Source: a bacterium (lineage in GTDB: Bacteria; Actinomycetota; Acidimicrobiia; Spongiisociales; Spongiisociaceae). From it: 64,000 nt of DNA. The position numbers and the translations under genes are program-made. Each line of letters begins with the position of its first letter. Positions within the stretch are counted from its first letter, which is position 1. Where the stretch lies: positions 78,681 through 142,680 of the forward strand of contig JAPPGU010000036.1 in NCBI GenBank assembly GCA_028821265.1. Reading direction: 5' to 3'. A model generated the notes under the pieces. That model searched no databases. It was not told the DNA's origin and saw only the letters and a program-made list of their open reading frames with translations. Of the stretch, positions 2 to 59,991 are shown in pieces.

Positions 2-607
2 TCGCGCCTGACCGCCCGCACCGCCAGCGAGGAACAGCAAACCTACATGCTGTGGCGGCGGCTCGACGCGCTATCCGCCGACAAACAGACCCGCCGCCTC
101 CTGCTGAACCATGTTCAGACCATTGACACGACCAGGAACATCGGCGAACTCGAACACGCTTACAACTATGTAACCGACCAGATCGAACATGCCGGGTTGG
201 ACCGTTCCGAAGCGGCGGAGCTGCAAGGGAACCTGGACACGCTGGTGAACAGCAAACAGAAAGGCCGGAATCTGGCCGAGCTGATCGTGCTGGTCATGCT
301 GGCGTTCCTGGTGGCGGGTATGGCCGTGTTCGCCCGCACCGAGACACAGGCGTGGCCCGCGCTGGTGAACGATGTGCTGTCGATGCTCTTGGCGTCAGCG
401 GTCACGTTCATGACCGTTCACCTGTTCGACCGACGCTCCGAACGTGACCTCCCCCTCATCACCGACGCCGGGAAGGTCATGTTCCGAACCGTCAAGACAG
501 ACGCGAAGCGCAACCCCAGGGTGGAACAAACCACCACGGTCGGTATCGGGTTCGCCGTCATCGGAATCTACGTATGGCTGATGGCGGTCAAATGGCTGCC
601 CCTCTGA
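2..607 (+). CDS. Hypothetical multi-pass membrane protein, probably 5'-truncated by the window edge
   Basis: Frame is open from base 2 through the ORF-track ATG at 47 to TGA 607; three hydrophobic segments (LIVLVMLAFLVAGMAVF, VLSMLLASAVTFMTV, VGIGFAVIGIYVWLMAV). No family recognised. Confidence 0.6.
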   Translation, partial: SRLTARTASEEQQTYMLWRRLDALSADKQTRRLLLNHVQTIDTTRNIGELEHAYNYVTDQIEHAGLDRSEAAELQGNLDTLVNSKQKGRNLAELIVLVMLAFLVAGMAVFARTETQAWPALVNDVLSMLLASAVTFMTVHLFDRRSERDLPLITDAGKVMFRTVKTDAKRNPRVEQTTTVGIGFAVIGIYVWLMAVKWLPL

Positions 608-1178
608 CCAGTCGGTCACGCTGAGCGGGTCGGACAGTCCGCCGACGATCAGGCCGCCGCGGTGTGTCGGTTTGGCAGCCATTCGCCTAGCTCCGCGTCC
701 GGTCCCCGCTGTTCGGCCAAGTGCGCAACCAGGACGACCTGTCCCAGGGGGCCGGCAGACGACCGTTCCGTCCTGGGTCGTTTCCCAGCGGTCCCGTTCC
801 GGCTGTGTGGCGTCGCCCAGGGCGGGAAACTCCACAACGGCACTTAAGGTGGTGGCCGTGTTCGGTGGACTCAGGCTTAAGCCGTTCCACGGGACGGGTC
901 GGCGGGCCGCTAACCCTCCCCTGCGGGTGCTACTCGTCGGCGGGTTCCCGACGACGCGGCACCAGCCTTGATAAACGCGTTGTCTGCCTATGGTCCCAAC
1001 TGGCGAGCCTCTTAGCCCTGTTCATTTGAACCCGTCCGTCGTCCCCGATGAACCGCTCTGGGCTGTTTTCGGCAGCACCCGAGGCTCCGACCTCTGACAT
1101 GAGCAAACCATCCACAGAAGCCAGCACGCTGGTCGCCGCCGACGATCTGGGACGTCGGTAATGGCGAGTATCCCCTAG

Positions 1179-2349: not shown

Positions 2350-2382
2350 TTCAATGGTTGGGTAACGGAGGGGACCGGACGG

Positions 2383-4410
2383 ATGACTCTCACCGCAGAC
2401 AGGGCGGTCACTCAGAAGCTCAGCCTGCTGGATGAACTGATTCTCACACTACTCAACGACGAGAGTGGCTACTTCCGGCAGGTTCCAGGGTGGGATTTGA
2501 GTTGTGCCGTCATCGGCGCCGTGCTGGGAGAGCTGTCCCTCCTGTCTCGCATCGACACCGATATGGACTCTTTGATCCTTCTGGATCGAAATGAAACGGG
2601 CGACCCTGCGCTCGATCCCATCCTCGAGAAGATCGCCTCGGAGCCGGTTCAACGAGATGCCCAGTACTGGATCGAACGGCTCGCCCCGCGCGCAGACTCG
2701 ATTGTCGACTTAACCCTTGACCGGCTGGTCGACCTGGAGATCCTCCGACACCACGACGGCGACTTCTGGTCGCTGGCGCCGGGGCTTTGGAAGCAGGACG
2801 AGTACGCCAAACCCGGCGAAGGCACTGCCGCGGACTACGTCAAGACGCGTATCAGCAGGGCGATCTTCGCAAATGAGATTCCGGACCCCAGAGACATCAT
2901 CATAATCTGCCTTATCAATACATGTGACGTCCTACGCTTTATTTTCGAACTCGATGAGGAGTCGGAAAGGCGTGTCGAGTTCATCTGCAAGATGGATTTG
3001 ATAGGCAGGTCCATCGCCGCGGCGGTTAGCCATAACCTGGCCGGGTCTTTGTACAGGCCCTCCGCCTTCGCGAAGCCGATTCCAACTGTCTCGCTTCGTC
3101 ATCTGCTGCGCAGCCGGCACGCTCGCGGAGGCAACATTCCCGCGTTCTTCGCGGAGCTCGCGAAGGAATACGGGCCTGTGTTTCAGATCCGTCCGCCCTT
3201 TGCCAACCCGATCATCTTTCTGGCGGGACCCGAGATGAACCACTGGGCACATCGACATGGGCGCATGTATCTGCGGGCCCGAGACTATCTGGAGGACTTC
3301 GAGAAGTTGTACGGAGGATCGGGGATATTGCCTACCTTGGACGGCGCCGATCATTTCCGGTATCGCAAGTCCATGCAGCCTGCCTATTCGCGCGCCAGGC
3401 TGGAGGCTCGACTGGATGAGGTCTACTCCAACGCCCGCAAGTACATGGCGGATTGGTCTGTAGGAGAGGAACTTCCCGGCAAGACGATGTGCAGGCGCCT
3501 GGTCAACGCGACACTGTCACCGCTGTCCGTCAGTGTCGACACCCAGGACCTCGTAGATGATCTGCACAAGTTCAAGGAACGGGCCCTCCAGACTCATGTC
3601 GTCAGGAACCTGCCCAAGTTCATGCTGCGCACCCCTGGAATGAAGCGGCGGGCAAAGCGGATCGGAGAGGTGGTGGAACGAGTTCAGAATGTCCACACGC
3701 CCGCCCAGCGGGCTGGGTGCCCTCGGGATCTTGCCGATGACCTGCTGAGCATGCACACGAGTGATCGGCAGTTCCTCCCCGAGTCGAACCTGCCGTTCGT
3801 GCTCTCGGCGCCGCTGATCGCAAGCATGTACGTGGGTGATCAGCTTGGATTCATCATCTACGCGATGCTGTCACAGCCCGAGTTCTACGAGAAGATCCGC
3901 GACGAGGCCGATGCCCTGTTCGCTAACCGGAACCCGGATCGTGACGAGATCACAGGACCGGGGATCGACGTCACCCGCCGGTTCATCATGGAGTGCATGC
4001 GGCTCTACCCGATCGTGCCGGCATCGTATCGAAACGTGATGAACACCTGCGCGGTCGACGGATACGAGTTGCCGCAGGGGGCTCGGGTCCTGATCGCCCA
4101 GACCGCCACACACTTCATGGAGGACGTCTTCCCCGATCCCTTCTCGTTCGACATCGACCGCTACCTGCCCCCGCGCAAGGAGCATCTGGGGCCGTCATAT
4201 GCGCCGTACGGTCTGGGTACCCACACCTGTCTGGGATCCCGCTGGACGTCATTGCACCTTGCGATCCATGTGCTGATCCTCGTGCATCATTTCACCCTCG
4301 AGATCGCTCCCGCCAACTACAAGCTGAAGATCAGCGCGTTCCCGTCGGCGTCGGTGAACAAGAAGCTGAAGTTTGTCGTCACCGAGCGGAGGCGCGAACT
4401 GCCCGTCTAA
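2383..4410 (+). CDS. Cytochrome P450 with N-terminal GPP34 (GOLPH3/Vps74-like) domain
   Basis: 675 aa. About aa 12-220 match the GPP34 pattern (LSLLDELILTLLNDESG, GAVLGELSLLSRI, TGDPALDPIL, LDRLVDLEIL). C-terminal ~440 aa are P450: EYGPVFQIR, ExxR (ECMR), PFSFDIDRY, heme-thiolate motif YGLGTHTCLG. Confidence 0.9.
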   Translation: MTLTADRAVTQKLSLLDELILTLLNDESGYFRQVPGWDLSCAVIGAVLGELSLLSRIDTDMDSLILLDRNETGDPALDPILEKIASEPVQRDAQYWIERLAPRADSIVDLTLDRLVDLEILRHHDGDFWSLAPGLWKQDEYAKPGEGTAADYVKTRISRAIFANEIPDPRDIIIICLINTCDVLRFIFELDEESERRVEFICKMDLIGRSIAAAVSHNLAGSLYRPSAFAKPIPTVSLRHLLRSRHARGGNIPAFFAELAKEYGPVFQIRPPFANPIIFLAGPEMNHWAHRHGRMYLRARDYLEDFEKLYGGSGILPTLDGADHFRYRKSMQPAYSRARLEARLDEVYSNARKYMADWSVGEELPGKTMCRRLVNATLSPLSVSVDTQDLVDDLHKFKERALQTHVVRNLPKFMLRTPGMKRRAKRIGEVVERVQNVHTPAQRAGCPRDLADDLLSMHTSDRQFLPESNLPFVLSAPLIASMYVGDQLGFIIYAMLSQPEFYEKIRDEADALFANRNPDRDEITGPGIDVTRRFIMECMRLYPIVPASYRNVMNTCAVDGYELPQGARVLIAQTATHFMEDVFPDPFSFDIDRYLPPRKEHLGPSYAPYGLGTHTCLGSRWTSLHLAIHVLILVHHFTLEIAPANYKLKISAFPSASVNKKLKFVVTERRRELPV

Positions 4411-4433: not shown

Positions 4434-5483
4434 CTAGCGGGTCTCCTGATCGGCCGGGTCGGGATAGAACTGGGCGCAATAGCGCCGGAATGGCATGATC
4501 TCGCCGTCGGAGCGACAGAGGCGCGGGCGGGACCGGTATTGCTTGCGGCTCCAGATGATCTCATCCTGCTGGACATCCCGGTACTGCTGGGACGAGATGA
4601 ACCGGTTCATGATTGGGGCTCGCCACTTCACCGGTAGGAACCCCAGGCCCGCGATCCACCGCCCCGGCTTGCGTATCTCCCGCACCTGCGAAACCAGCGA
4701 CAGGTCGATGAGCGAGCCGTCGACAGGCGTCGCCAGCACCCACAGGCGCAGATCCATCCCGATCGAACGCTCGCGGATCTGCACGAACGAGTAGCCCAAT
4801 CCGTAGATCCGGGTGCGGGCGGCCACGTCGAAGGTAAGGGTGATGATCCCCGCAGTCGTCCGGGTGCGCCTGAAGTCGAAGTCGCTCTCCAGGAGCGGCC
4901 CGTCCACGGACACCCGCCCTACGCGGTCCACGCTGTCGTAGCCGTGGACGTAGCGCAGGTGGCCCACGTCGACCGAGTTCTCCGTCGTCTCTTGGGGATG
5001 GCCGGGAAACCGGAGGGTCCTGATCTTGAGACCGGTCCAGCCGGCCTGATCCGGTTCATCCTCTGGCAGATTCCATTGCGGCGCCCGTCCCCTGATCCCC
5101 CACCAGGCGAAGATCAGGCCCGCGATCTCCTGCGTCTCGAAGACGCGTAACCTCGCGGTGGTGGGCGGCGGCGAATAGGGGGTGGCCACGCACTGGCCGG
5201 TGGCGTCGAACTCGTAGCCATGGAACGGGCAGACCAGCCGCCCCTCACAGATGCGACCTCCTGCGGTCGGTCCCAGATCGGCGCCCAGATGCGGGCAGTA
5301 GGCGCCGGCGACGCACACGGTGCCGTTCTCGTCGCTCCAGGCGACGATGTTCTCTCCCATCCATGTCTTTTCGATGATCCCGGCTTCCAGCAGTGCCCTA
5401 CGGCTCGTGACGAAGTACCAGCCCTCGGGAAAGGGAGAAGGCAGCGGGGCATTCTCGAGCACCACCCTACGCCGGGTAGACAT
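4434..5483 (-). CDS. Rieske non-heme iron oxygenase, KshA / cholesterol 7-desaturase (Neverland, DAF-36)-like
   Basis: Rieske ligands CPHLG and CPFHG; mononuclear Fe motif ENSVDVGHLRYVH; C-terminal QDEIIWSRKQY...DGEIMPFRRYCAQFY resembling sterol-acting Rieske enzymes. Confidence 0.88.
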   Translation of the reverse strand: MSTRRRVVLENAPLPSPFPEGWYFVTSRRALLEAGIIEKTWMGENIVAWSDENGTVCVAGAYCPHLGADLGPTAGGRICEGRLVCPFHGYEFDATGQCVATPYSPPPTTARLRVFETQEIAGLIFAWWGIRGRAPQWNLPEDEPDQAGWTGLKIRTLRFPGHPQETTENSVDVGHLRYVHGYDSVDRVGRVSVDGPLLESDFDFRRTRTTAGIITLTFDVAARTRIYGLGYSFVQIRERSIGMDLRLWVLATPVDGSLIDLSLVSQVREIRKPGRWIAGLGFLPVKWRAPIMNRFISSQQYRDVQQDEIIWSRKQYRSRPRLCRSDGEIMPFRRYCAQFYPDPADQETR

Positions 5484-9736: not shown

Positions 9737-10137
9737 GGGCGTACGCTCCCTAGTGCTAGCGCATGCGGCGGTCGAGGCCTTAGGCGGAGGTTTTTTCGCG
9801 TTCTCGGGGTGACGGGGTCGGATCTGTCACAGGCTCGCGCCATGTTGGGGATCACCAAATACCCGGCGGCTCCGAGCTCCGACGTCAGCCCGGCCGCCCG
9901 AGGGGTTATCGAACATCGAGAGCGGGCCCCGAGGCCCGGCCCGGCGGAGCGCGCTCTCATCCCAGGAAAGGTGGCGGTGGGGGAGGGCCCGGCGGTGCCG
10001 CCGCACGAGGCCAGTTTTTTGGCTCCACTGGTCGGCGAGCCTGGAGAGAGATCAGACGGTGCCGAGCCGGCGGCCCTCATGACGCGGTCCGGCCGGCTCC
10101 GGACGGCATGAACAACCTGACACCCTCGTCCGGCCGG

Positions 10138-10653
10138 TCAGGCGACCAGGGAAGGGTCAGCCCGGAGACGGGCTCGTATCCGGCGGGGCTCGTCCATGAG
10201 AAGATCGGCCGGAACCGACCCGAGCGCCGAGCGTCCCGGCCAGGGATCGTGCGCCAACTCGTCCAGCCAGCGCTCTCTCACCTCGGCGAGCCCTGCCGGG
10301 GCCCCGCCCGTCCGGGCATAGCCATCGTGCAACCCCACCAGAGACAGCGCAACCTCCACGTCCTGGCGAGTAGGCCCCCGGCGAGCATGGGATGCCCGGG
10401 CGCCTACCAACGCGGAAAGCAAGCTCTCCAGATCCCTGGGCCTCCGGCCCCGATCGAACGAGGCCGCTCTGATCATCTGTAGCCCCCAGCCGGTGTCGGG
10501 GCCCGGCCGCCCGAACGACCCTCCGGATGGTGTCTCGGCGGGAGAAGTGATCTCGCCGGGGCGGGTCGGGCTCCAGCGTCGCTCCGGGGCCCGGTCGAGG
10601 TCTTCGGCGGGTCGCTCCGTAGAGCGCAGGCGGATGTTCGGTTGCCTGCCCAT
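10138..10653 (-). CDS. Hypothetical protein
   Basis: 171 aa ORF with GGAGG upstream, co-oriented between ilvE and the FAH gene; no motif recognised. Confidence 0.65.
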   Translation of the reverse strand: MGRQPNIRLRSTERPAEDLDRAPERRWSPTRPGEITSPAETPSGGSFGRPGPDTGWGLQMIRAASFDRGRRPRDLESLLSALVGARASHARRGPTRQDVEVALSLVGLHDGYARTGGAPAGLAEVRERWLDELAHDPWPGRSALGSVPADLLMDEPRRIRARLRADPSLVA

Positions 10654-10717
10654 CAGATGACCTCCGTCGGGACTTGCATCGTCCCTCGGCGCATCCCGAA
10701 CCGCCTACGGTCGACCA

Positions 10718-11629
10718 CTAGATGTAGTCGAGCCAGTCGGTGTATTCATCCAGCTTGCCGGTGTAGGCGTCGGCGTAGATCTCCTGCGCCCGCCTGGTTA
10801 CCGGGCCGGGACGGCCCGAACCGACCGTACGGTTGTCGACCTCGCGTACCGGTGTCACCTCGGCCGCGGTCCCCGTCATGAACAGCTCGTCGCAGTAGTA
10901 CAGGTCGGAGCGGTGGATCACCTTCTCCACCACCTCGTACCCGTCGTCGCGGAGGAGCGTCATCACCGAGTTGCGGGTGATGCCGTCGAGGCACCCGGCC
11001 GACAGCGGCGGCGTGTAGATGACGCCGTCGCGGATCACGAACAGGTTCTCGCCCGAGCCCTCGGAGATCGAGCCCTCCGAATTGAGCATCAAGGCCTCGT
11101 CGTAGCCGTCCGTTACCGCCTCGCGCTTGGCGAGGATCGAGTTGATGTAGGTCCCGGTCGCCTTGGCGTTCGGGAACGCATCATGGGAGAAGCGACGCCA
11201 CGAGGAGACCTTGACCCGTATGCCGTTGAGGATGCCCTCCTCGCCGAGATAGGCGCCCCACTGCCAGGTAATGATCGCCACCTGCACTTTGGCGTTGCGG
11301 GGATCCAGACCGAGCGCGCCGAGGCCGAGGAAGACGATCGGGCGGATGTAGGCGGATGAGAACTCGTTGGCCCGGACTACCTCCTTGGCAGCCTCGACCA
11401 TCTCGTCCACCGAGTACCCGAGATCCATGCGGTACGACTTGGCGGACCGGGCCAGACGTCTCATGTGGTCGGTAAGCCGGAAACCGGCCGTACCGCCCAC
11501 TGCTTCGTAGGCCCGGATGCCTTCGAAGACACCCGTGCCGTAGTGCAATGCGTGGGTCAGGACATGGACGGTGGCATCCTCGAAGTCAACGATCCGACCA
11601 TCCATCCATATGTATCTTGCCGTATCCAT
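10718..11629 (-). CDS. ilvE: Branched-chain amino acid aminotransferase
   Basis: THALHYGTGVFEGIRAY, AKATGTY, EGSGENLF, LDGITR, GTAAEVTPV. Start placed at ATG 11629, 7 nt after TATCAT. Confidence 0.96.
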   Translation of the reverse strand: MDTARYIWMDGRIVDFEDATVHVLTHALHYGTGVFEGIRAYEAVGGTAGFRLTDHMRRLARSAKSYRMDLGYSVDEMVEAAKEVVRANEFSSAYIRPIVFLGLGALGLDPRNAKVQVAIITWQWGAYLGEEGILNGIRVKVSSWRRFSHDAFPNAKATGTYINSILAKREAVTDGYDEALMLNSEGSISEGSGENLFVIRDGVIYTPPLSAGCLDGITRNSVMTLLRDDGYEVVEKVIHRSDLYYCDELFMTGTAAEVTPVREVDNRTVGSGRPGPVTRRAQEIYADAYTGKLDEYTDWLDYI

Positions 11630-11764
11630 GACCACCATGATAGAACCCGCGCAGACCGAGTAACCCGCATCTGCCCGGTGGTTCCGGCGGCCGGACCGGA
11701 CCGGCCGGAGTCCGGACGCTGCCCCGCGCGGTATCCTGCTGGCTGGTCCTGATGCAATGCGTTC

Positions 11765-12487
11765 GTGAGTAGCCTGCTCTCACCCGATATCTGGGTGTCC
11801 CTGGTGGCCCTGACGGCCCTCGAGATCGTGCTGGGCGTGGACAACCTGGTGTTCATCTCGCTGATGGCCAACAAGCTGCCTCCCGCGTCTCGGGACCGGG
11901 TGTGGAAAGTCGGGCTGGCGATGGCAGCTGCTATGCGGGTGGTGCTCCTGTTCGCCATCAACTGGGTGATCGGCCTTACCGCGCCGCTGTTCTCCGTCTT
12001 CAACCACAGCGTCTCCGGGCGGGACCTGATCCTCCTGGGCGGCGGCGCGTTCCTGCTCGGCAAGGCCGTGATCGAGATCCACGAGCAGCTCTATCCGGGA
12101 TCGCGCCACGACGGTAGGGCCGAACGGACCGCCGCCACCTTCGCAGGTGTGCTGGGCCAGATCGCGTTGCTGGACATGGTCTTCAGCCTGGACTCGGTGA
12201 TAACCGCCGTGGGCATGGCCGACCGGATCGGGGTCATGATCGCGGCCGTGCTCATCGCGGTCGGCGTGATGATGTGGCTCTCGAGCCCGGTCATGCGGAT
12301 CGTCAACGAGCACCCGACCATCCGGATGCTGGCGCTGGCCTTCCTCCTCCTGATCGGGGTCTCTCTCGTCGCCGAGGGCGGTGGCGCCCACCTCCCCAAG
12401 GGCTACATCTACTCCGCTATGGGCTTCGCCGTGCTGGTGGAGATGCTGAACATGCGCATGCGGCGCAACCAGACCATCCGTGAGTGA
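11765..12487 (+). CDS. TerC family membrane protein
   Basis: LEIVLGVDNLVFI, DMVFSLDSVITAVGM, PKGYIYSAMGF. Confidence 0.95.
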   Translation: MSSLLSPDIWVSLVALTALEIVLGVDNLVFISLMANKLPPASRDRVWKVGLAMAAAMRVVLLFAINWVIGLTAPLFSVFNHSVSGRDLILLGGGAFLLGKAVIEIHEQLYPGSRHDGRAERTAATFAGVLGQIALLDMVFSLDSVITAVGMADRIGVMIAAVLIAVGVMMWLSSPVMRIVNEHPTIRMLALAFLLLIGVSLVAEGGGAHLPKGYIYSAMGFAVLVEMLNMRMRRNQTIRE

Positions 12488-57693: not shown

Positions 57694-59952
57694 TTACTGC
57701 TCGGCAAGGGCTGCTTCGAGGATCTTGGCCTTGTCTAGTGTGCCTTGTTCGCCGACAGTGACAGTGACCTTGTCTATGTCGCCGGTAAAGGCGAAAGGCG
57801 CCTCGTAGTCCGGGCAGACGGACAGCCCCCTGTCCAAGCCGCAGTTCAGGCTGCCGTGGGCGGGGAAAACCCAGGGAATCGTCATGCCGATGCGGCCCCC
57901 CACGGGCTCGGCGTCCCCGACGACCAACTCTACGTCGCCGCGATGGTCCGCTTCTTTGCTGTAGGTCACCGAGACCCTGATCGGGCCGTCACCTGCCGGT
58001 AGTGGAGCGGTCACCCGGTACTCCCGGATGCCGCACAGGTTGTAGACGAACCGGATCTCCCCGTCCTTGGCGAACAGGGTGTAGCCGCCGAAGCGGTTGC
58101 CGTGGGCGAAGATGACGCCCTCGGTCACGCCGGACGGGTTCGGGGCAATGGTTGTGGAGATGTGGAAGTCCCGGTTCAGTGTGTTGACCGCTCCCCGGGC
58201 GAAGACGGGTTGGGAGTTCGGCAGGTACTCGTAGGTATCCCGGTGGGGCCCGATAGAGGGACGGGGGTCGGGCCAACGTTCGTGGCCGCGGTCGTCGATG
58301 GGGAGAACGTTGTATCGGCCCGCCTCCACCCACCAGCGATCGACCAGGTCGTGGACGATTTCGGGATACGTGTCGGAGAGGTCACTGGTCTCGTTGGGGT
58401 CGTCCTCCATGTTGTAGAGGAACCAGCGGTCCTGGTCGAAGTTGCCCCGGCTGCTCATGGGCGCGTGGTCGGCGACCGCCTTCCAGCCGTCGTAGTAGAT
58501 GGCGCGATGGCCCAGCATCTCGTAGTACTGCACGAGCTTGCGGGACTCGGTCTCGGGCTCCAGCACGCTGTACCACATGCTCACCCCTTCGATCTCGGAC
58601 TGGTGCACGCCGCCGATGATCGAGGGAGGGTCGATGTCCAGGGCCTCCAGGATGGTGGGCATGACGTCGGTCACATGGTGGTACTGGCGCCGTATCTCGC
58701 CGGCGCCCCGGATCCCCTTCGGCCACCGGATGATGAACGGGTCGGCGATCCCGCCCTGCCACACCGAGCGCTTCCACTCCCGGAACGGTGTGTTGCCGGC
58801 CATCGACCAACCACGCGGATAGTGGTTCATGTAGCCGGGCCCGCCGATCCGGTCGATGTGTTCCAGCAGTTCGGAGAACTCCGGGAACAGGGCGTTGTAC
58901 ATGGCGTACTCGTTGACGATCCCGTGCTCCTGGCCCTCCAGGCTGGCGCCGTTGTCGGAAAGGAACACGATCATCGTGTCGTCCAGGCGGCCGATCCGGC
59001 GCAGGAACTCCACCACCCGCCCGATCTGCCGGTCGGTGTGGGTGATGAAGCCGGCGTACACCTCCTGCATGCGGGTGTACAGGCGTTTGTGGTCGTCCGA
59101 CAGGGTGTCCCAGGCCGCCACTCCCCAGTTTCGCTCCGGGAGTTCCACCGATTCCGCCATCAGCCCCAGCTCCTTCTGGCGGTCCAGCACGCGCTGCCGT
59201 TCCACGTCCCAGCCCTCGTCGAAGACACCCCGGTAGGCGTCGGCGTACTCCGCCGGTACGTGGTGGGGCGAGTGACCGGCCCCGTAGGCCAGGTACAGGA
59301 AGAACGGCTTGGCGGGATTGGCCGAGTGGGCGCCCGCCAGGTAGTCGATGGCCCGGTCGGTCAGGTCGACGCTCAGGTGGTAACCGTTTCCGCCGGGACG
59401 GTCGACGAACTGGTTGTCCTGGGCCAGGGCGCCCGGGTGCCAGTGGTCGATCATTCCCATCAGGAAGCCGTAGAACCGTTCGAAACCCCGACCCAGTGGC
59501 CAGCGGTCGAACGGTCCCACAGCGGTCTGCTCGTAGTCCGGGGTCAGGTGCCACTTGCCCACAGCGAAGGTGTTGTAGCCGCGGTCCCGCAGCACCTCCG
59601 ACAGCATGCCGTGCTCGGCGGGCATCACCGCGTTGTGGCCCGGATAGCCCATCGCCAGCTGCGGGATGCTGGCCATGCCGGAGCTGTGATGGTTCCGCCC
59701 GGTCAACAGCGCCGCCCGGGTCGGTGAGCAAAGGGCGGTGGTGTGGAAGGCCGAGTAACGGATCCCGTCGGCCGCCAGCGCGTCGATGTTGGGTGTGCGG
59801 ATCGACGACCCGTAGCACCCGATCTGTCCGAAGCCGACGTCGTCCAGGAGGATCACCACCACGTTGGTCCGGCCGTCGGCAACGGGCGAGGATTGCGGCC
59901 AGCGAACCTCGGACTCTTCTCTCGTCTTTCCGACTCTCTGAGGACCGCCCAT
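57694..59952 (-). CDS. Arylsulfatase (Cys-type, formylglycine-dependent, long AtsA/AtsD-like form)
   Basis: LLDDVGFG, CSPTRAALLTGR, VGKWHL, SDNGAS, C-terminal beta domain; no signal peptide seen; GGAG upstream of ATG 59952. Confidence 0.94.
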   Translation of the reverse strand: MGGPQRVGKTREESEVRWPQSSPVADGRTNVVVILLDDVGFGQIGCYGSSIRTPNIDALAADGIRYSAFHTTALCSPTRAALLTGRNHHSSGMASIPQLAMGYPGHNAVMPAEHGMLSEVLRDRGYNTFAVGKWHLTPDYEQTAVGPFDRWPLGRGFERFYGFLMGMIDHWHPGALAQDNQFVDRPGGNGYHLSVDLTDRAIDYLAGAHSANPAKPFFLYLAYGAGHSPHHVPAEYADAYRGVFDEGWDVERQRVLDRQKELGLMAESVELPERNWGVAAWDTLSDDHKRLYTRMQEVYAGFITHTDRQIGRVVEFLRRIGRLDDTMIVFLSDNGASLEGQEHGIVNEYAMYNALFPEFSELLEHIDRIGGPGYMNHYPRGWSMAGNTPFREWKRSVWQGGIADPFIIRWPKGIRGAGEIRRQYHHVTDVMPTILEALDIDPPSIIGGVHQSEIEGVSMWYSVLEPETESRKLVQYYEMLGHRAIYYDGWKAVADHAPMSSRGNFDQDRWFLYNMEDDPNETSDLSDTYPEIVHDLVDRWWVEAGRYNVLPIDDRGHERWPDPRPSIGPHRDTYEYLPNSQPVFARGAVNTLNRDFHISTTIAPNPSGVTEGVIFAHGNRFGGYTLFAKDGEIRFVYNLCGIREYRVTAPLPAGDGPIRVSVTYSKEADHRGDVELVVGDAEPVGGRIGMTIPWVFPAHGSLNCGLDRGLSVCPDYEAPFAFTGDIDKVTVTVGEQGTLDKAKILEAALAEQ

Positions 59953-59991
59953 CACCTGCTCCAATCAAGCCTCGCCGGGGTCGGGGGGCTC

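Follow-up and report, generated by a model that had tools for sequence, protein, structure and literature searches.

A GPP34–cytochrome P450 fusion protein from a sponge-associated bacterium as a candidate sterol-tailoring oxygenase

The gene described here comes from a sponge-associated bacterium and encodes a protein of the already published GPP34_L family; it lies in a window of 64,000 nucleotides, the whole stretch of DNA that was analysed. The reading that we favour, at about an even chance of being correct, is that the protein is a cytoplasmic sterol-tailoring oxygenase carrying a non-catalytic GPP34 adaptor domain. GPP34_L is the name given to the architecture in which GPP34 is combined with a cytochrome P450; of 663 long GPP34 proteins 656 have it, and every one of these comes from a sponge symbiont (Ferreira et al. 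2025, Microbiome 13:4, PMC11706023). Few genomic features mark sponge symbionts of many phyla as consistently as this fusion (Ferreira et al. 2025), and the novelty that an earlier note on this DNA had implied gives way to an architecture already in print. In the same note no characterised enzyme is known to have this architecture, and none was found in the literature searched. That literature, which was mostly without subscription journals, yielded neither biochemistry on GPP34_L nor a printed link of GPP34 to sterols in bacteria, and sterols go unmentioned in the main text of Ferreira et al. (2025, PMC11706023).

Table 1. Features of the fusion gene and its convergent neighbour, in positions of the window.
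Feature	Position	Strand	Basis
GPP34–P450 fusion gene, GPP34_L family	2383..4410	+	ORF, translation, both Pfam domains
GGAGGGG, Shine–Dalgarno-like	2367..2373	+	Read from sequence
GPP34 (GOLPH3/Vps74-fold) domain, residues 15–215	2425..3027	+	Pfam, PDB profile, fold search
Cytochrome P450 domain (predicted), residues 241–661, E-class fold	3103..4365	+	Pfam, PDB sequence matches, Foldseek
I-helix, residues 467–497, ASMYV-GDQ	3781..3873	+	Helix in AF2 model, alignments
Heme-thiolate Cys616 codon (predicted), in YGLGTHTCLG	4228..4230	+	Motif; Cys column invariant in 34/34
KshA-family Rieske non-heme-iron oxygenase, 349 aa, convergent neighbour	4434..5483	-	Pfam, PDB, motifs

The ORF listing and the translation agree on a single frame of 675 aa that opens with ATG and is free of internal stops, 9 nt downstream of the GGAGGGG motif. 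Pfam places GPP34 (PF05719; E=1.4e-28, 100.8 bits against a cut-off of 29.1) ahead of p450 (PF00067; E=5.5e-37, 128.1 bits against a cut-off of 22.8), and the latter match spans profile positions 13–455 of 462. The full-length AF2 model of the fusion reached a pLDDT of 83.9 and a pTM of 0.77, and a two-chain complex prediction of the P450 and GPP34 domains, run without controls, spoke neither for nor against contact between them (score 0.00, mark 0.32). The make-up proposed in the earlier note—one uninterrupted 675 aa ORF, an N-terminal GPP34 region, an entire P450 including the heme Cys and no redox-partner domain—is borne out in each part by these bit scores, by a fold that is that of GOLPH3/Vps74, by the finding of Cys616 and by the fact that only the GPP34 and p450 families match.

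That note had also named an assembly artefact as a possible objection, and the objection fails because contigs from two studies cross the domain junction. Single contigs span it in run X2 (2749–4145) and run X3 (2664–3722), runs X1 and X2 being possibly the window's own source sample. Both Pfam domains are present in 120 of 120 homologues among the matches listed (67–97% identity, 622–739 aa), several of these two-domain homologues sit on contigs of more than 3 Mb, and the fusion is encoded at 27 loci in species-representative genomes; on these grounds an artefact is ruled out. The top three sequencing runs (X1, X2 and X3, with shares of 0.89, 0.63 and 0.31) carry the label sponge metagenome, with contigs that match at 95–100% identity. 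A coral metagenome run (X7) contributed pieces of 22–139 nt only and, like the other runs with small shares, has no bearing on habitat, and there was no RNA run among the sequencing runs listed as carrying the fusion.

The C-terminal domain is predicted to be a heme-thiolate P450 that belongs to no named family. Its heme motif, YGLGTHTCLG, begins at residue 609 and its ExxR motif, ECMR, at residue 537, and the columns of Cys616, E537 and R540 are invariant in all 34 aligned sequences. In canonical P450s the I-helix motif (A/G)Gx(D/E)T contains an acid–alcohol pair that serves O2 activation. This pair is missing from the ASMYV-GDQ of the query, from the clade to which the query belongs and from 21 of 34 long forms, with an AG[LI][DEH]T-like motif in 13 of the 34 and a CYP51-like H-T in the I-helix of some divergent family members. 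P450s without the pair exist, and its absence therefore does not exclude P450 membership. Sequence matches in the PDB are to CYP725A4, CYP120A1 and CYP51 at about 20% identity, the CYP51 chains matching only over the C-terminal half (E=6e-18). The top Foldseek hit of the full-length model is the P450 domain of M. capsulatus CYP51 (6mcw), with BM3, CYP97 and CYP184 practically tied with it (TM 0.78–0.81 relative to the target). No family-level match, to CYP51 or otherwise, was found in NCBIfam or the PDB, and an ESM Atlas search with the P450 part returned generic 'cytochrome P450' clusters only. The PDB neighbours CYP51, BM3, CYP97, CYP120 and CYP184 are practically tied, and the substrate of the P450 is not readable from its sequence.

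The GPP34 domain keeps the fold of GOLPH3/Vps74 without the basic residues of the PI4P pocket. A profile of the N-domain built from 28 sequences matches GOLPH3 (3kn1, E=7.9e-20) and Vps74 (E=3.6e-18) in the PDB, where a single-sequence phmmer search with the domain gave no match. The AF2 model of the N-domain (pLDDT 86.8) finds GOLPH3/Vps74 as all of its top six Foldseek hits (probability 1.00, TM 0.56–0.66) and as its sole significant PDB folds. The projecting beta3/beta4 hairpin is kept at residues 121–131, with strands 121–124 and 128–131 present in both AF2 models and, in the HMM alignment, falling where GOLPH3 has its hairpin. In the accessible part of the description by Wood et al. (2009), eukaryotic GOLPH3 is an adaptor that holds lipid- and glycan-modifying enzymes at a membrane, its PtdIns4P pocket consists of W81, R90, R171 and R174, and the beta-hairpin is tied to PtdIns4P binding. 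Mapped on an alignment of roughly 20% identity, R90, R171 and R174 fall on I44, D105 and V108 of the query, none of the three basic. W81 falls on P35, and two residues later the query has a Trp that recurs in 23 of 34 long forms and could be equivalent, its position being uncertain. The R90 column is basic in 0 of 34 long and 0 of 28 short forms and the R171 column in 0 of 34 long forms, and a basic residue occupies the R174 column in 10 of 34 long and 17 of 28 short forms. The domain is acidic, with a pI of 4.5 that would repel anionic membranes, and the N-domains of all 34 long forms have a pI below 6.

These results bear on the model of the earlier note, in which a basic pocket in GPP34 binds phosphoinositide or another anionic lipid and thereby does the work of the TM anchor that eukaryotic P450s have. 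Such a model would suit a soluble P450 that has no TM segment, a hairpin of the kind linked to PtdIns4P binding (Wood et al. 2009, as far as its text is accessible) and partner genes that suggest lipid-type substrates. Against the pocket itself stand the I, D and V found in place of the three arginines, an R90 column that is never basic in long or short forms and the low pI, and we regard the model as quite improbable.

A second role for the same domain was proposed with the family: GPP34_L would be a secreted, PI4P-binding effector that is exported, binds host PI4P on the phagosome and halts its maturation, with the P450 as an unspecified helper (Ferreira et al. 2025, PMC11706023). In its favour are the presence of GPP34 in 153 of 160 sponge-symbiont Actinobacteriota genomes against 0 of 109 free-living MAGs, the restriction of the long forms to sponge symbionts and the expression of GPP34 in 45 of 107 MAGs (Ferreira et al. 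2025, PMC11706023). The rarity agrees with our class sample, in which 1 of 150 other Acidimicrobiia genomes has GPP34 above the cut-off and 0 of 150 has the fusion (the source genome additionally holds a short GPP34 copy), and the GOLPH3/Vps74 fold is confirmed. Against it, a 19-residue hydropathy scan of the fusion revealed no TM-like or signal-like segment, no signal peptide and no hydrophobic N-terminus; the highest value, 1.97, lies within the GPP34 core, compared with 3.28 in the neighbouring membrane protein. Conservation does not extend to the basic PI4P residues, the domain is acidic, and the conserved partners described below are cytoplasmic or membrane lipid enzymes. Moreover, a heme P450 depends on a reductase system, which would stay behind in the bacterium and thus argues against a secreted effector. 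Secretion data were not found in the accessible text of Ferreira et al. (2025), and the effector role seems to us unlikely.

The surroundings of the gene bear on the sterol-tailoring reading. With the single fusion protein as query, 27 orthologous loci were found at 57–86% identity, a set that reaches only the query's own subfamily (at least 57% identity) and that comes from MAGs of seven lineages (Acidimicrobiia, Dehalococcoidia, Binatia, Thermodesulfobacteriota, Alphaproteobacteria, Latescibacterota and Pseudomonadales); many of these loci are close kin, and they are therefore not 27 independent cases. By tblastn, 20 of 27 loci have an orthologue of the Rieske neighbour no more than 10 kb from the fusion and 7 lack one at that distance, a count used in place of the 22 of 28 from blastp clusters, which was inflated by shadow ORFs opposite the FAD gene. 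Within the same distance, a methyltransferase with CMAS and Sterol_MT_C domains occurs in 13 of 27 loci (missing in 14), an HpnN-like MMPL/HAE3 RND transporter in 14 of 27 and an FAD amine-oxidase-like gene in 7 of 27. At least one of the four partners is present in 26 of the 27, the exception (L011) having none. Only the five closest Acidimicrobiia share the window's other neighbours, or six in the case of the membrane protein.

The spacing of these genes is close at several loci. At six of them (L013, L017, L020, L023, L024 and L026) the methyltransferase or the Rieske gene is on the same strand as the fusion and 15–53 nt from it, and the locus of the closest relative (L024, 86% identity) shares the window's synteny, except that there the methyltransferase is inserted and separates the fusion from the Rieske gene. 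In the window only the Rieske gene adjoins the fusion, and the methyltransferases of the source genome are on other contigs. The one locus of a divergent long form that was examined (L035) has no cassette gene within 10 kb. Nine short-GPP34 loci (including the source genome's own, L003, and L036–L042) have no P450, Rieske, SMT or RND gene within 10 kb at E<1e-6, and the proximity of P450 to short GPP34 genes reported for two clades (Ferreira et al. 2025, PMC11706023) was not reproduced at these nine. A quick ML tree was made from 26 fusion proteins, with L012 and L027 left out as split or merged ORFs; grouping in it is mostly by phylum, with two Latescibacterota rows within a Chloroflexota group (SH-aLRT 91).

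The Rieske neighbour ends 23 bp from the fusion, stop codon to stop codon. It matches the Pfam families Rieske and KshA_C (KshA_C at 80.2 bits), carries CxH..CxxH and HxxxxH motifs, has KshA (4qdc, E=1.5e-22) as its best PDB match and is the only KshA_C gene of the source genome. An identity as SdmA was considered and ruled out, the NF052579 model scoring 27.5 bits where its cut-off is 600. Of 150 other Acidimicrobiia genomes 36 carry KshA_C, and the 'sterol-sensing' Pfam of the RND transporter also matches in 6 of 14 control genomes; neither is therefore sterol-specific. None of the 150 other Acidimicrobiia genomes sampled and none of 14 control genomes has Sterol_MT_C. Where the domain occurs, in the cassette and in the source genome, it scores 59.9–80.9 bits against a cut-off of 21.7; the source genome has two genes with it, and one of them is 71% identical to the cassette methyltransferase. 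The lipid or sterol substrate suggested in the earlier note gains support from the homologue of sterol methyltransferases and the Rieske oxygenase of KshA type that lie beside orthologues of the fusion.

The favoured reading draws these elements together. The fusion would be a soluble two-domain protein, probably cytoplasmic, whose P450 may oxidise a sterol alongside the adjacent KshA-type Rieske oxygenase and two sterol-methyltransferase homologues whose genes lie on other contigs, as part of a gene set that recurs in loci from several phyla of sponge metagenomes. The GPP34 adaptor would bring the oxygenase to a membrane or to a partner that handles sterols and would not act as a phosphoinositide reader. 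The sterol would probably be host-derived, because the source genome shows no triterpene cyclase: no squalene or oxidosqualene cyclase domain was found in this genome, which is 84.6% complete. Among five other genomes, three have a cyclase domain, none near the fusion; this search does not separate SHC from OSC and so speaks neither for nor against de novo synthesis in the five.

Host sterols could also serve as food. In a catabolic scheme the KshA-like oxygenase would open ring B and the P450 would hydroxylate the side chain in the manner of CYP125. The KshA enzymes that are the best solved relatives of the Rieske neighbour fit such a scheme, as do the missing cyclase and a KshB-type reductase gene on another contig of the source genome (C62), and genes for steroid catabolism are reportedly present in host-associated metagenomes (Holert et al. 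2018). The scheme has to contend with a recurring SMT homologue and RND transporter, whose functions are anabolic or in transport, and with the observation that no other catabolic gene recurs among the gene clusters of the 27 loci, and we give it only a slim chance.

It might alternatively be supposed that the cassette acts on a non-sterol isoprenoid, a squalene-derived or polyprenyl lipid of the bacterium's own that is methylated and then exported by the RND transporter much as HpnN exports hopanoids. Squalene and botryococcene methyltransferases provide the model for the methyltransferase in such a pathway. The source genome does hold an hpnCDE-like operon of two SQS_PSY genes and an amine oxidase, which makes an endogenous squalene-derived substrate possible. 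The models that the RND protein matches best are HAE3 at 220 bits and HpnN at 124 bits, neither reaching its cut-off, and the cassette FAD enzyme bears a weak likeness to HpnE and protoporphyrinogen oxidase. However, Sterol_MT_C is matched well over its cut-off, the Rieske oxygenase belongs to the KshA family, and in vitro work has shown that bacterial SMTs of sponge symbionts methylate sterols at C-24 (Brown et al. 2023, Nat Commun 14:1859, in its accessible part). This pathway, too, we judge improbable.

A broader form of the sterol-tailoring reading, possible but on balance doubtful, is that the fusion, Rieske oxygenase, SMT and RND transporter make up a cross-phylum set, probably spread by transfer, for the uptake, re-tailoring and return of host sterols by unrelated sponge symbionts, in which GPP34 is a docking module that joins enzyme to membrane, as in the Golgi, but without PI4P. 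In that case symbiont enzymes would make some of the odd sterols of sponges, including side-chain-alkylated ones used as animal biomarkers, and the enrichment of GPP34 in symbionts would reflect sterol handling and not escape from phagocytosis. The link of the fusion to SMT and steroid-type oxygenase genes gives a testable biochemical hypothesis that competes with the phagosome-effector idea. It bears on the dispute over the bacterial share in the alkylated sponge sterols that are taken to be the earliest biomarkers of animals (Brown et al. 2023, in its accessible part), and it would offer a first way into the function of bacterial GPP34 domains and into a pre-Golgi role of the GOLPH3 fold.

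Set against known systems, the window protein shares with GPP34_L its domain order, a length near 675 aa and an origin in sponge metagenomes, here from an Acidimicrobiia genome, with no structural difference between them; it is the proposed function that differs, sterol tailoring inside the bacterium in place of a secreted PI4P effector. The accessible part of Brown et al. (2023) describes SMT clusters in which SMT homologues lie beside Rieske-type sterol enzymes in uncultured sponge symbionts, a likeness to the 13 of 27 fusion loci with an SMT. Those clusters contain sdmA/sdmB and an oxidosqualene cyclase, whereas the window's Rieske protein is not an SdmA equivalog and the source genome is without a cyclase; the words 'P450' and 'transporter' are absent from that paper's main text. 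The nearest sequence or fold neighbours of the P450 domain are the CYP51–ferredoxin fusion 6mcw, CYP120A1 and CYP725A4. In 6mcw the fused partner is a ferredoxin, and BM3-type fusions likewise join a bacterial P450 to a second domain that is a redox domain, whereas GPP34 has no flavin or iron–sulfur family match and sits N-terminal to the P450, and so cannot supply electrons. With eukaryotic GOLPH3/Vps74 (3kn1, 2zih) the bacterial domain has the fold and the beta-hairpin in common (TM about 0.6). The eukaryotic domain is basic, with the basic PI4P residues, and binds enzyme tails in trans, whereas the bacterial one is acidic, lacks those residues and is fused directly to its enzyme.

The gene that joins a GPP34 domain to a cytochrome P450 is an additional member of a published, uncharacterised family, GPP34_L, the name given to the same architecture by Ferreira et al. 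(2025, Microbiome 13:4, PMC11706023). According to the main text of that study, 656 of 663 long GPP34 proteins are GPP34 with P450, this monophyletic group is confined to sponge symbionts and spans the majority of the 20 phyla covered, and GPP34 gene expression was detected in 45 of 107 MAGs; the role of the P450 is left open there. The novelty implied by an earlier note on this DNA is therefore superseded. What is added here is a negative result for the PI4P pocket and a cross-phylum linkage to sterol-type genes, which was found neither in literature searches nor in that main text, where the terms 'sterol' and 'steroid' have zero occurrences.

The gene occupies one ORF of 675 aa that opens with ATG, has a GGAGGGG motif 9 nt upstream and shows zero internal stops in translation. 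It encodes both a GPP34 domain and a complete P450, at the coordinates and with the content that the earlier note had read. The heme-ligand motif YGLGTHTCLG with Cys616 and the K-helix ExxR (E537, R540) are both unchanged in every one of the 34 family members aligned. The fusion is no product of misassembly: all 120 homologues among the matches listed (67–97% identity, 622–739 aa) have both Pfam domains, several on contigs >3 Mb; 27 loci in the species-representative genomes scanned encode full-length proteins 57–86% identical to the query; and single contigs span the domain junction in two of the three best-matching sequencing runs. These runs, labelled sponge metagenome and drawn from two studies, match the fusion stretch with shares of 0.89, 0.63 and 0.31; X3 is independent, and X1 and X2 possibly come from the window's source sample. 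Some copies have a broken or frameshifted appearance, through either sequencing error or decay: the split and truncated ones in the table, and two homologues (P0191, P0258) whose C-termini fail to align in family alignment A1.

Coordinates of the fusion gene, its parts and related features
Feature	Sequence	Position	Strand	Detail
GPP34-P450 fusion gene	window	2383-4410	+	
GPP34 (PF05719)	fusion protein	15-215		Pfam E=1.4e-28, 100.8 bits
p450 (PF00067)	fusion protein	241-661		Pfam E=5.5e-37, 128.1 bits
Beta-hairpin strands, N-domain model	fusion protein	121-124, 128-131		
I-helix, model	fusion protein	467-497		
I-helix segment, family alignment A3	fusion protein	474-492		
Junction-spanning contig, run X2	window	2749-4145		
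Junction-spanning contig, run X3	window	2664-3722		
Low-GC stretch	window	2401-3900		GC 0.57-0.60
Sulfatase-family gene	window	57694-59964	-	756 aa
Nearby paralogues	locus L010	4987-7011, 10001-12028		
Nearby paralogues	locus L012	7773-9797, ~10001-12025		in tandem
Split fusion	locus L027	9983-12118		3 ORFs
Truncated fusion	locus L021	10001-11845		
Short GPP34 region, own genome	contig C16, locus L003	8360-12498		GPP34 of 213 aa
hpnCDE-like operon, own genome	contig C17, locus L044	3288-6501	-	two SQS_PSY, amine oxidase

The P450 domain is assigned to the E-class with no named family, because its relatives by fold are practically tied and NCBIfam gave matches far below threshold only. The closest solved sequences are taxadiene 5-alpha-hydroxylase (7e-23), CYP184A1 (7wzl), CYP120A1 and CYP51; in the fold comparison the top place goes to the CYP51 domain of M. 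capsulatus (6mcw), with BM3, CYP97C1, CYP184A1 and CYP120A1 practically level. At the expected place of the I-helix acid–alcohol pair, canonically AGx(D/E)T, the query reads ASMYV-GDQ. The pair is missing in 21 of 34 long forms, and an AG[LI][DEH]T-like motif is kept in the other 13. Two I-helix types occur in the family: the query type, AS(M/I/V)Y(V/L)-G, with acid and Thr both absent, and a divergent type, AG(L/I)(D/E/H)T, with an H-T in three members, as in CYP51. Known P450s that lack the I-helix Thr use substrate-assisted or peroxide-type chemistry. Pfam and NCBIfam detect no flavin or Fe-S domain in the fusion, and no TM-like or signal-like segment occurs along the protein.

The dip in GC over the fusion compares with 0.65–0.69 on both flanks, and its GC3 of 0.76 with 0.81–0.89 for flanking genes (the adjoining Rieske gene is flank-like, at 0.85), values that would fit acquisition by transfer. 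In a quick tree the proteins fall mostly into groups by phylum, with short inter-phylum distances.

The fusion converges stop-to-stop, 23 bp apart, on a 349-aa Rieske + KshA_C oxygenase with intact metal motifs, which among solved structures is closest to KshA enzymes (E=1.5e-22); an SdmA equivalog assignment was ruled out (27.5 bits vs 600). The comparison covered 27 orthologous loci in MAGs of seven lineages: Acidimicrobiia, Dehalococcoidia, Binatia, Thermodesulfobacteriota, Alphaproteobacteria, Latescibacterota and Pseudomonadales. No more than 10 kb from the fusion lie a Rieske orthologue (47–95% identity) at 20 loci, an ~825-aa MMPL/HAE3 RND transporter at 14, a methyltransferase of ~350 aa that combines CMAS and Sterol_MT_C domains at 13 and an ~460-aa FAD amine-oxidase-like protein at seven, although many loci are close kin and the effective n is below 27. 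At least one partner is present at 26 loci (the exception, L011, has none), the methyltransferase or transporter at 19, and the linkage is seen in six of the seven lineages. Partner order and orientation vary; at six loci a methyltransferase or Rieske gene lies on the same strand, 15–53 nt from the fusion. For the window's remaining neighbours, recurrence is limited to close Acidimicrobiia: the nearest five for the genes of an F420H2 reductase family protein, an aminotransferase and GltX, and six for that of a membrane protein. The closest locus (L024, 86% identity) has the window's synteny, but with the methyltransferase between fusion and Rieske gene. Binatia and Thermodesulfobacteriota loci each carry a pair of neighbouring GPP34-P450 paralogues, with a total of three long forms in the Binatia genome. 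Elsewhere in the window, the sulfatase-family gene sits among housekeeping genes (LigA, ArgS, AlaS, AspS, RelA/SpoT, SecD, TGT, GatA, GltX).

The window's own genome (2.6 Mb, 84.6% complete) has only two P450 genes, and the Rieske neighbour is its sole KshA_C gene. It also encodes a KshB-type reductase, an SSD-type RND protein 33% identical to the cassette transporter, an FAD gene fragment at a contig edge and, on other contigs, two Sterol_MT_C genes, one 71% identical to the cassette methyltransferase. Alongside its hpnCDE-like operon, no squalene or oxidosqualene cyclase domain is detectable at this completeness. A short GPP34 is present besides the fusion, between acyl-CoA dehydrogenase and MFS_3 transporter genes, both of which likewise border it in a relative from the Acidimicrobiia (L040), and a Pyr_redox_3 flavin monooxygenase-type gene lies 3 kb away. 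Of 150 further genomes sampled from the class, one has GPP34 over cut-off, none has the fusion or Sterol_MT_C, and 36 have KshA_C.

The most economical reading, in which our confidence is about evenly divided, places the fusion and the adjacent Rieske gene in a predicted sterol-tailoring set common to sponge symbionts, because these partners recur and because in vitro methylation of sterols at C-24 was shown for SMT homologues of sponge-symbiont metagenomes, which are clustered with Rieske-type sterol enzymes (Brown et al. 2023, PMC10070321). The sterol would be supplied by the host, since no cyclase is detectable in the genome; an endogenous squalene-derived substrate is possible instead. Counting against sterol tailoring, the methyltransferase is missing at 14 of 27 loci and at the window's own, and neither the SSD nor the KshA_C family is specific to sterols. 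We consider a catabolic role improbable, and a non-sterol isoprenoid substrate seems equally doubtful.

The GPP34 identity of the N-terminal region is borne out by Pfam, by a 28-sequence profile that finds human GOLPH3 (3kn1) with E=7.9e-20 and yeast Vps74 with E=3.6e-18, and by an AF2 model (pLDDT 86.8) whose only significant PDB folds are GOLPH3/Vps74 chains (top 6, probability 1.00, TM 0.56–0.66). The PtdIns4P site of GOLPH3 consists of R90, R171, R174 and W81 (Wood et al. 2009, PMC2806290). As mapped by HMM alignment at ~20% identity, R90 corresponds to I44 (basic in 0/34 long forms and 0/28 of the short-form alignment), R171 to D105 (0/34, with 29 D/E, and 2/28) and R174 to V108 (10/34 and 17/28); W81, counted as uncertain, falls on P35 in a mostly Pro column, with Trp two residues on in 23/34 long forms. 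The domain's pI is below 6 in all 34 long forms and 4.5 in the query. Judged from these columns and its acidity, the domain has the GOLPH3 fold but lacks the basic pocket for phosphoinositides, which counts against two proposals. Ferreira et al. suggested a secreted GPP34 that binds host PI4P and blocks phagosome maturation, which we think unlikely for this protein. We give similarly little credence to a GPP34 domain that anchors the enzyme on anionic lipids. The interpretation in the earlier note is thus supported in part: docking through a basic pocket is not, and its remark that it knew of no characterised enzyme built this way still holds, literature searches having returned neither such an enzyme nor a second paper on the architecture.

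The GPP34 domain looks like a portable non-catalytic module, because besides P450 it is fused to Rieske, ABC ATPase and STAS domains. GPP34+Rieske fusions are reported in two genomes and GPP34+PotA fusions in five (PMC11706023). Among the homologues scanned, P0141 (872 aa) has two GPP34 domains followed by P450, P0134 (444 aa) is a tandem GPP34, and P0249 (358 aa) has STAS followed by GPP34, a form not met in the passages of Ferreira et al. consulted. By analogy with Vps74/GOLPH3, we infer that the domain may serve as an adaptor that positions enzymes. The basic PtdIns4P residues of GOLPH3 set it apart from the query, which has the fold and the beta-hairpin in common with GOLPH3 and Vps74.
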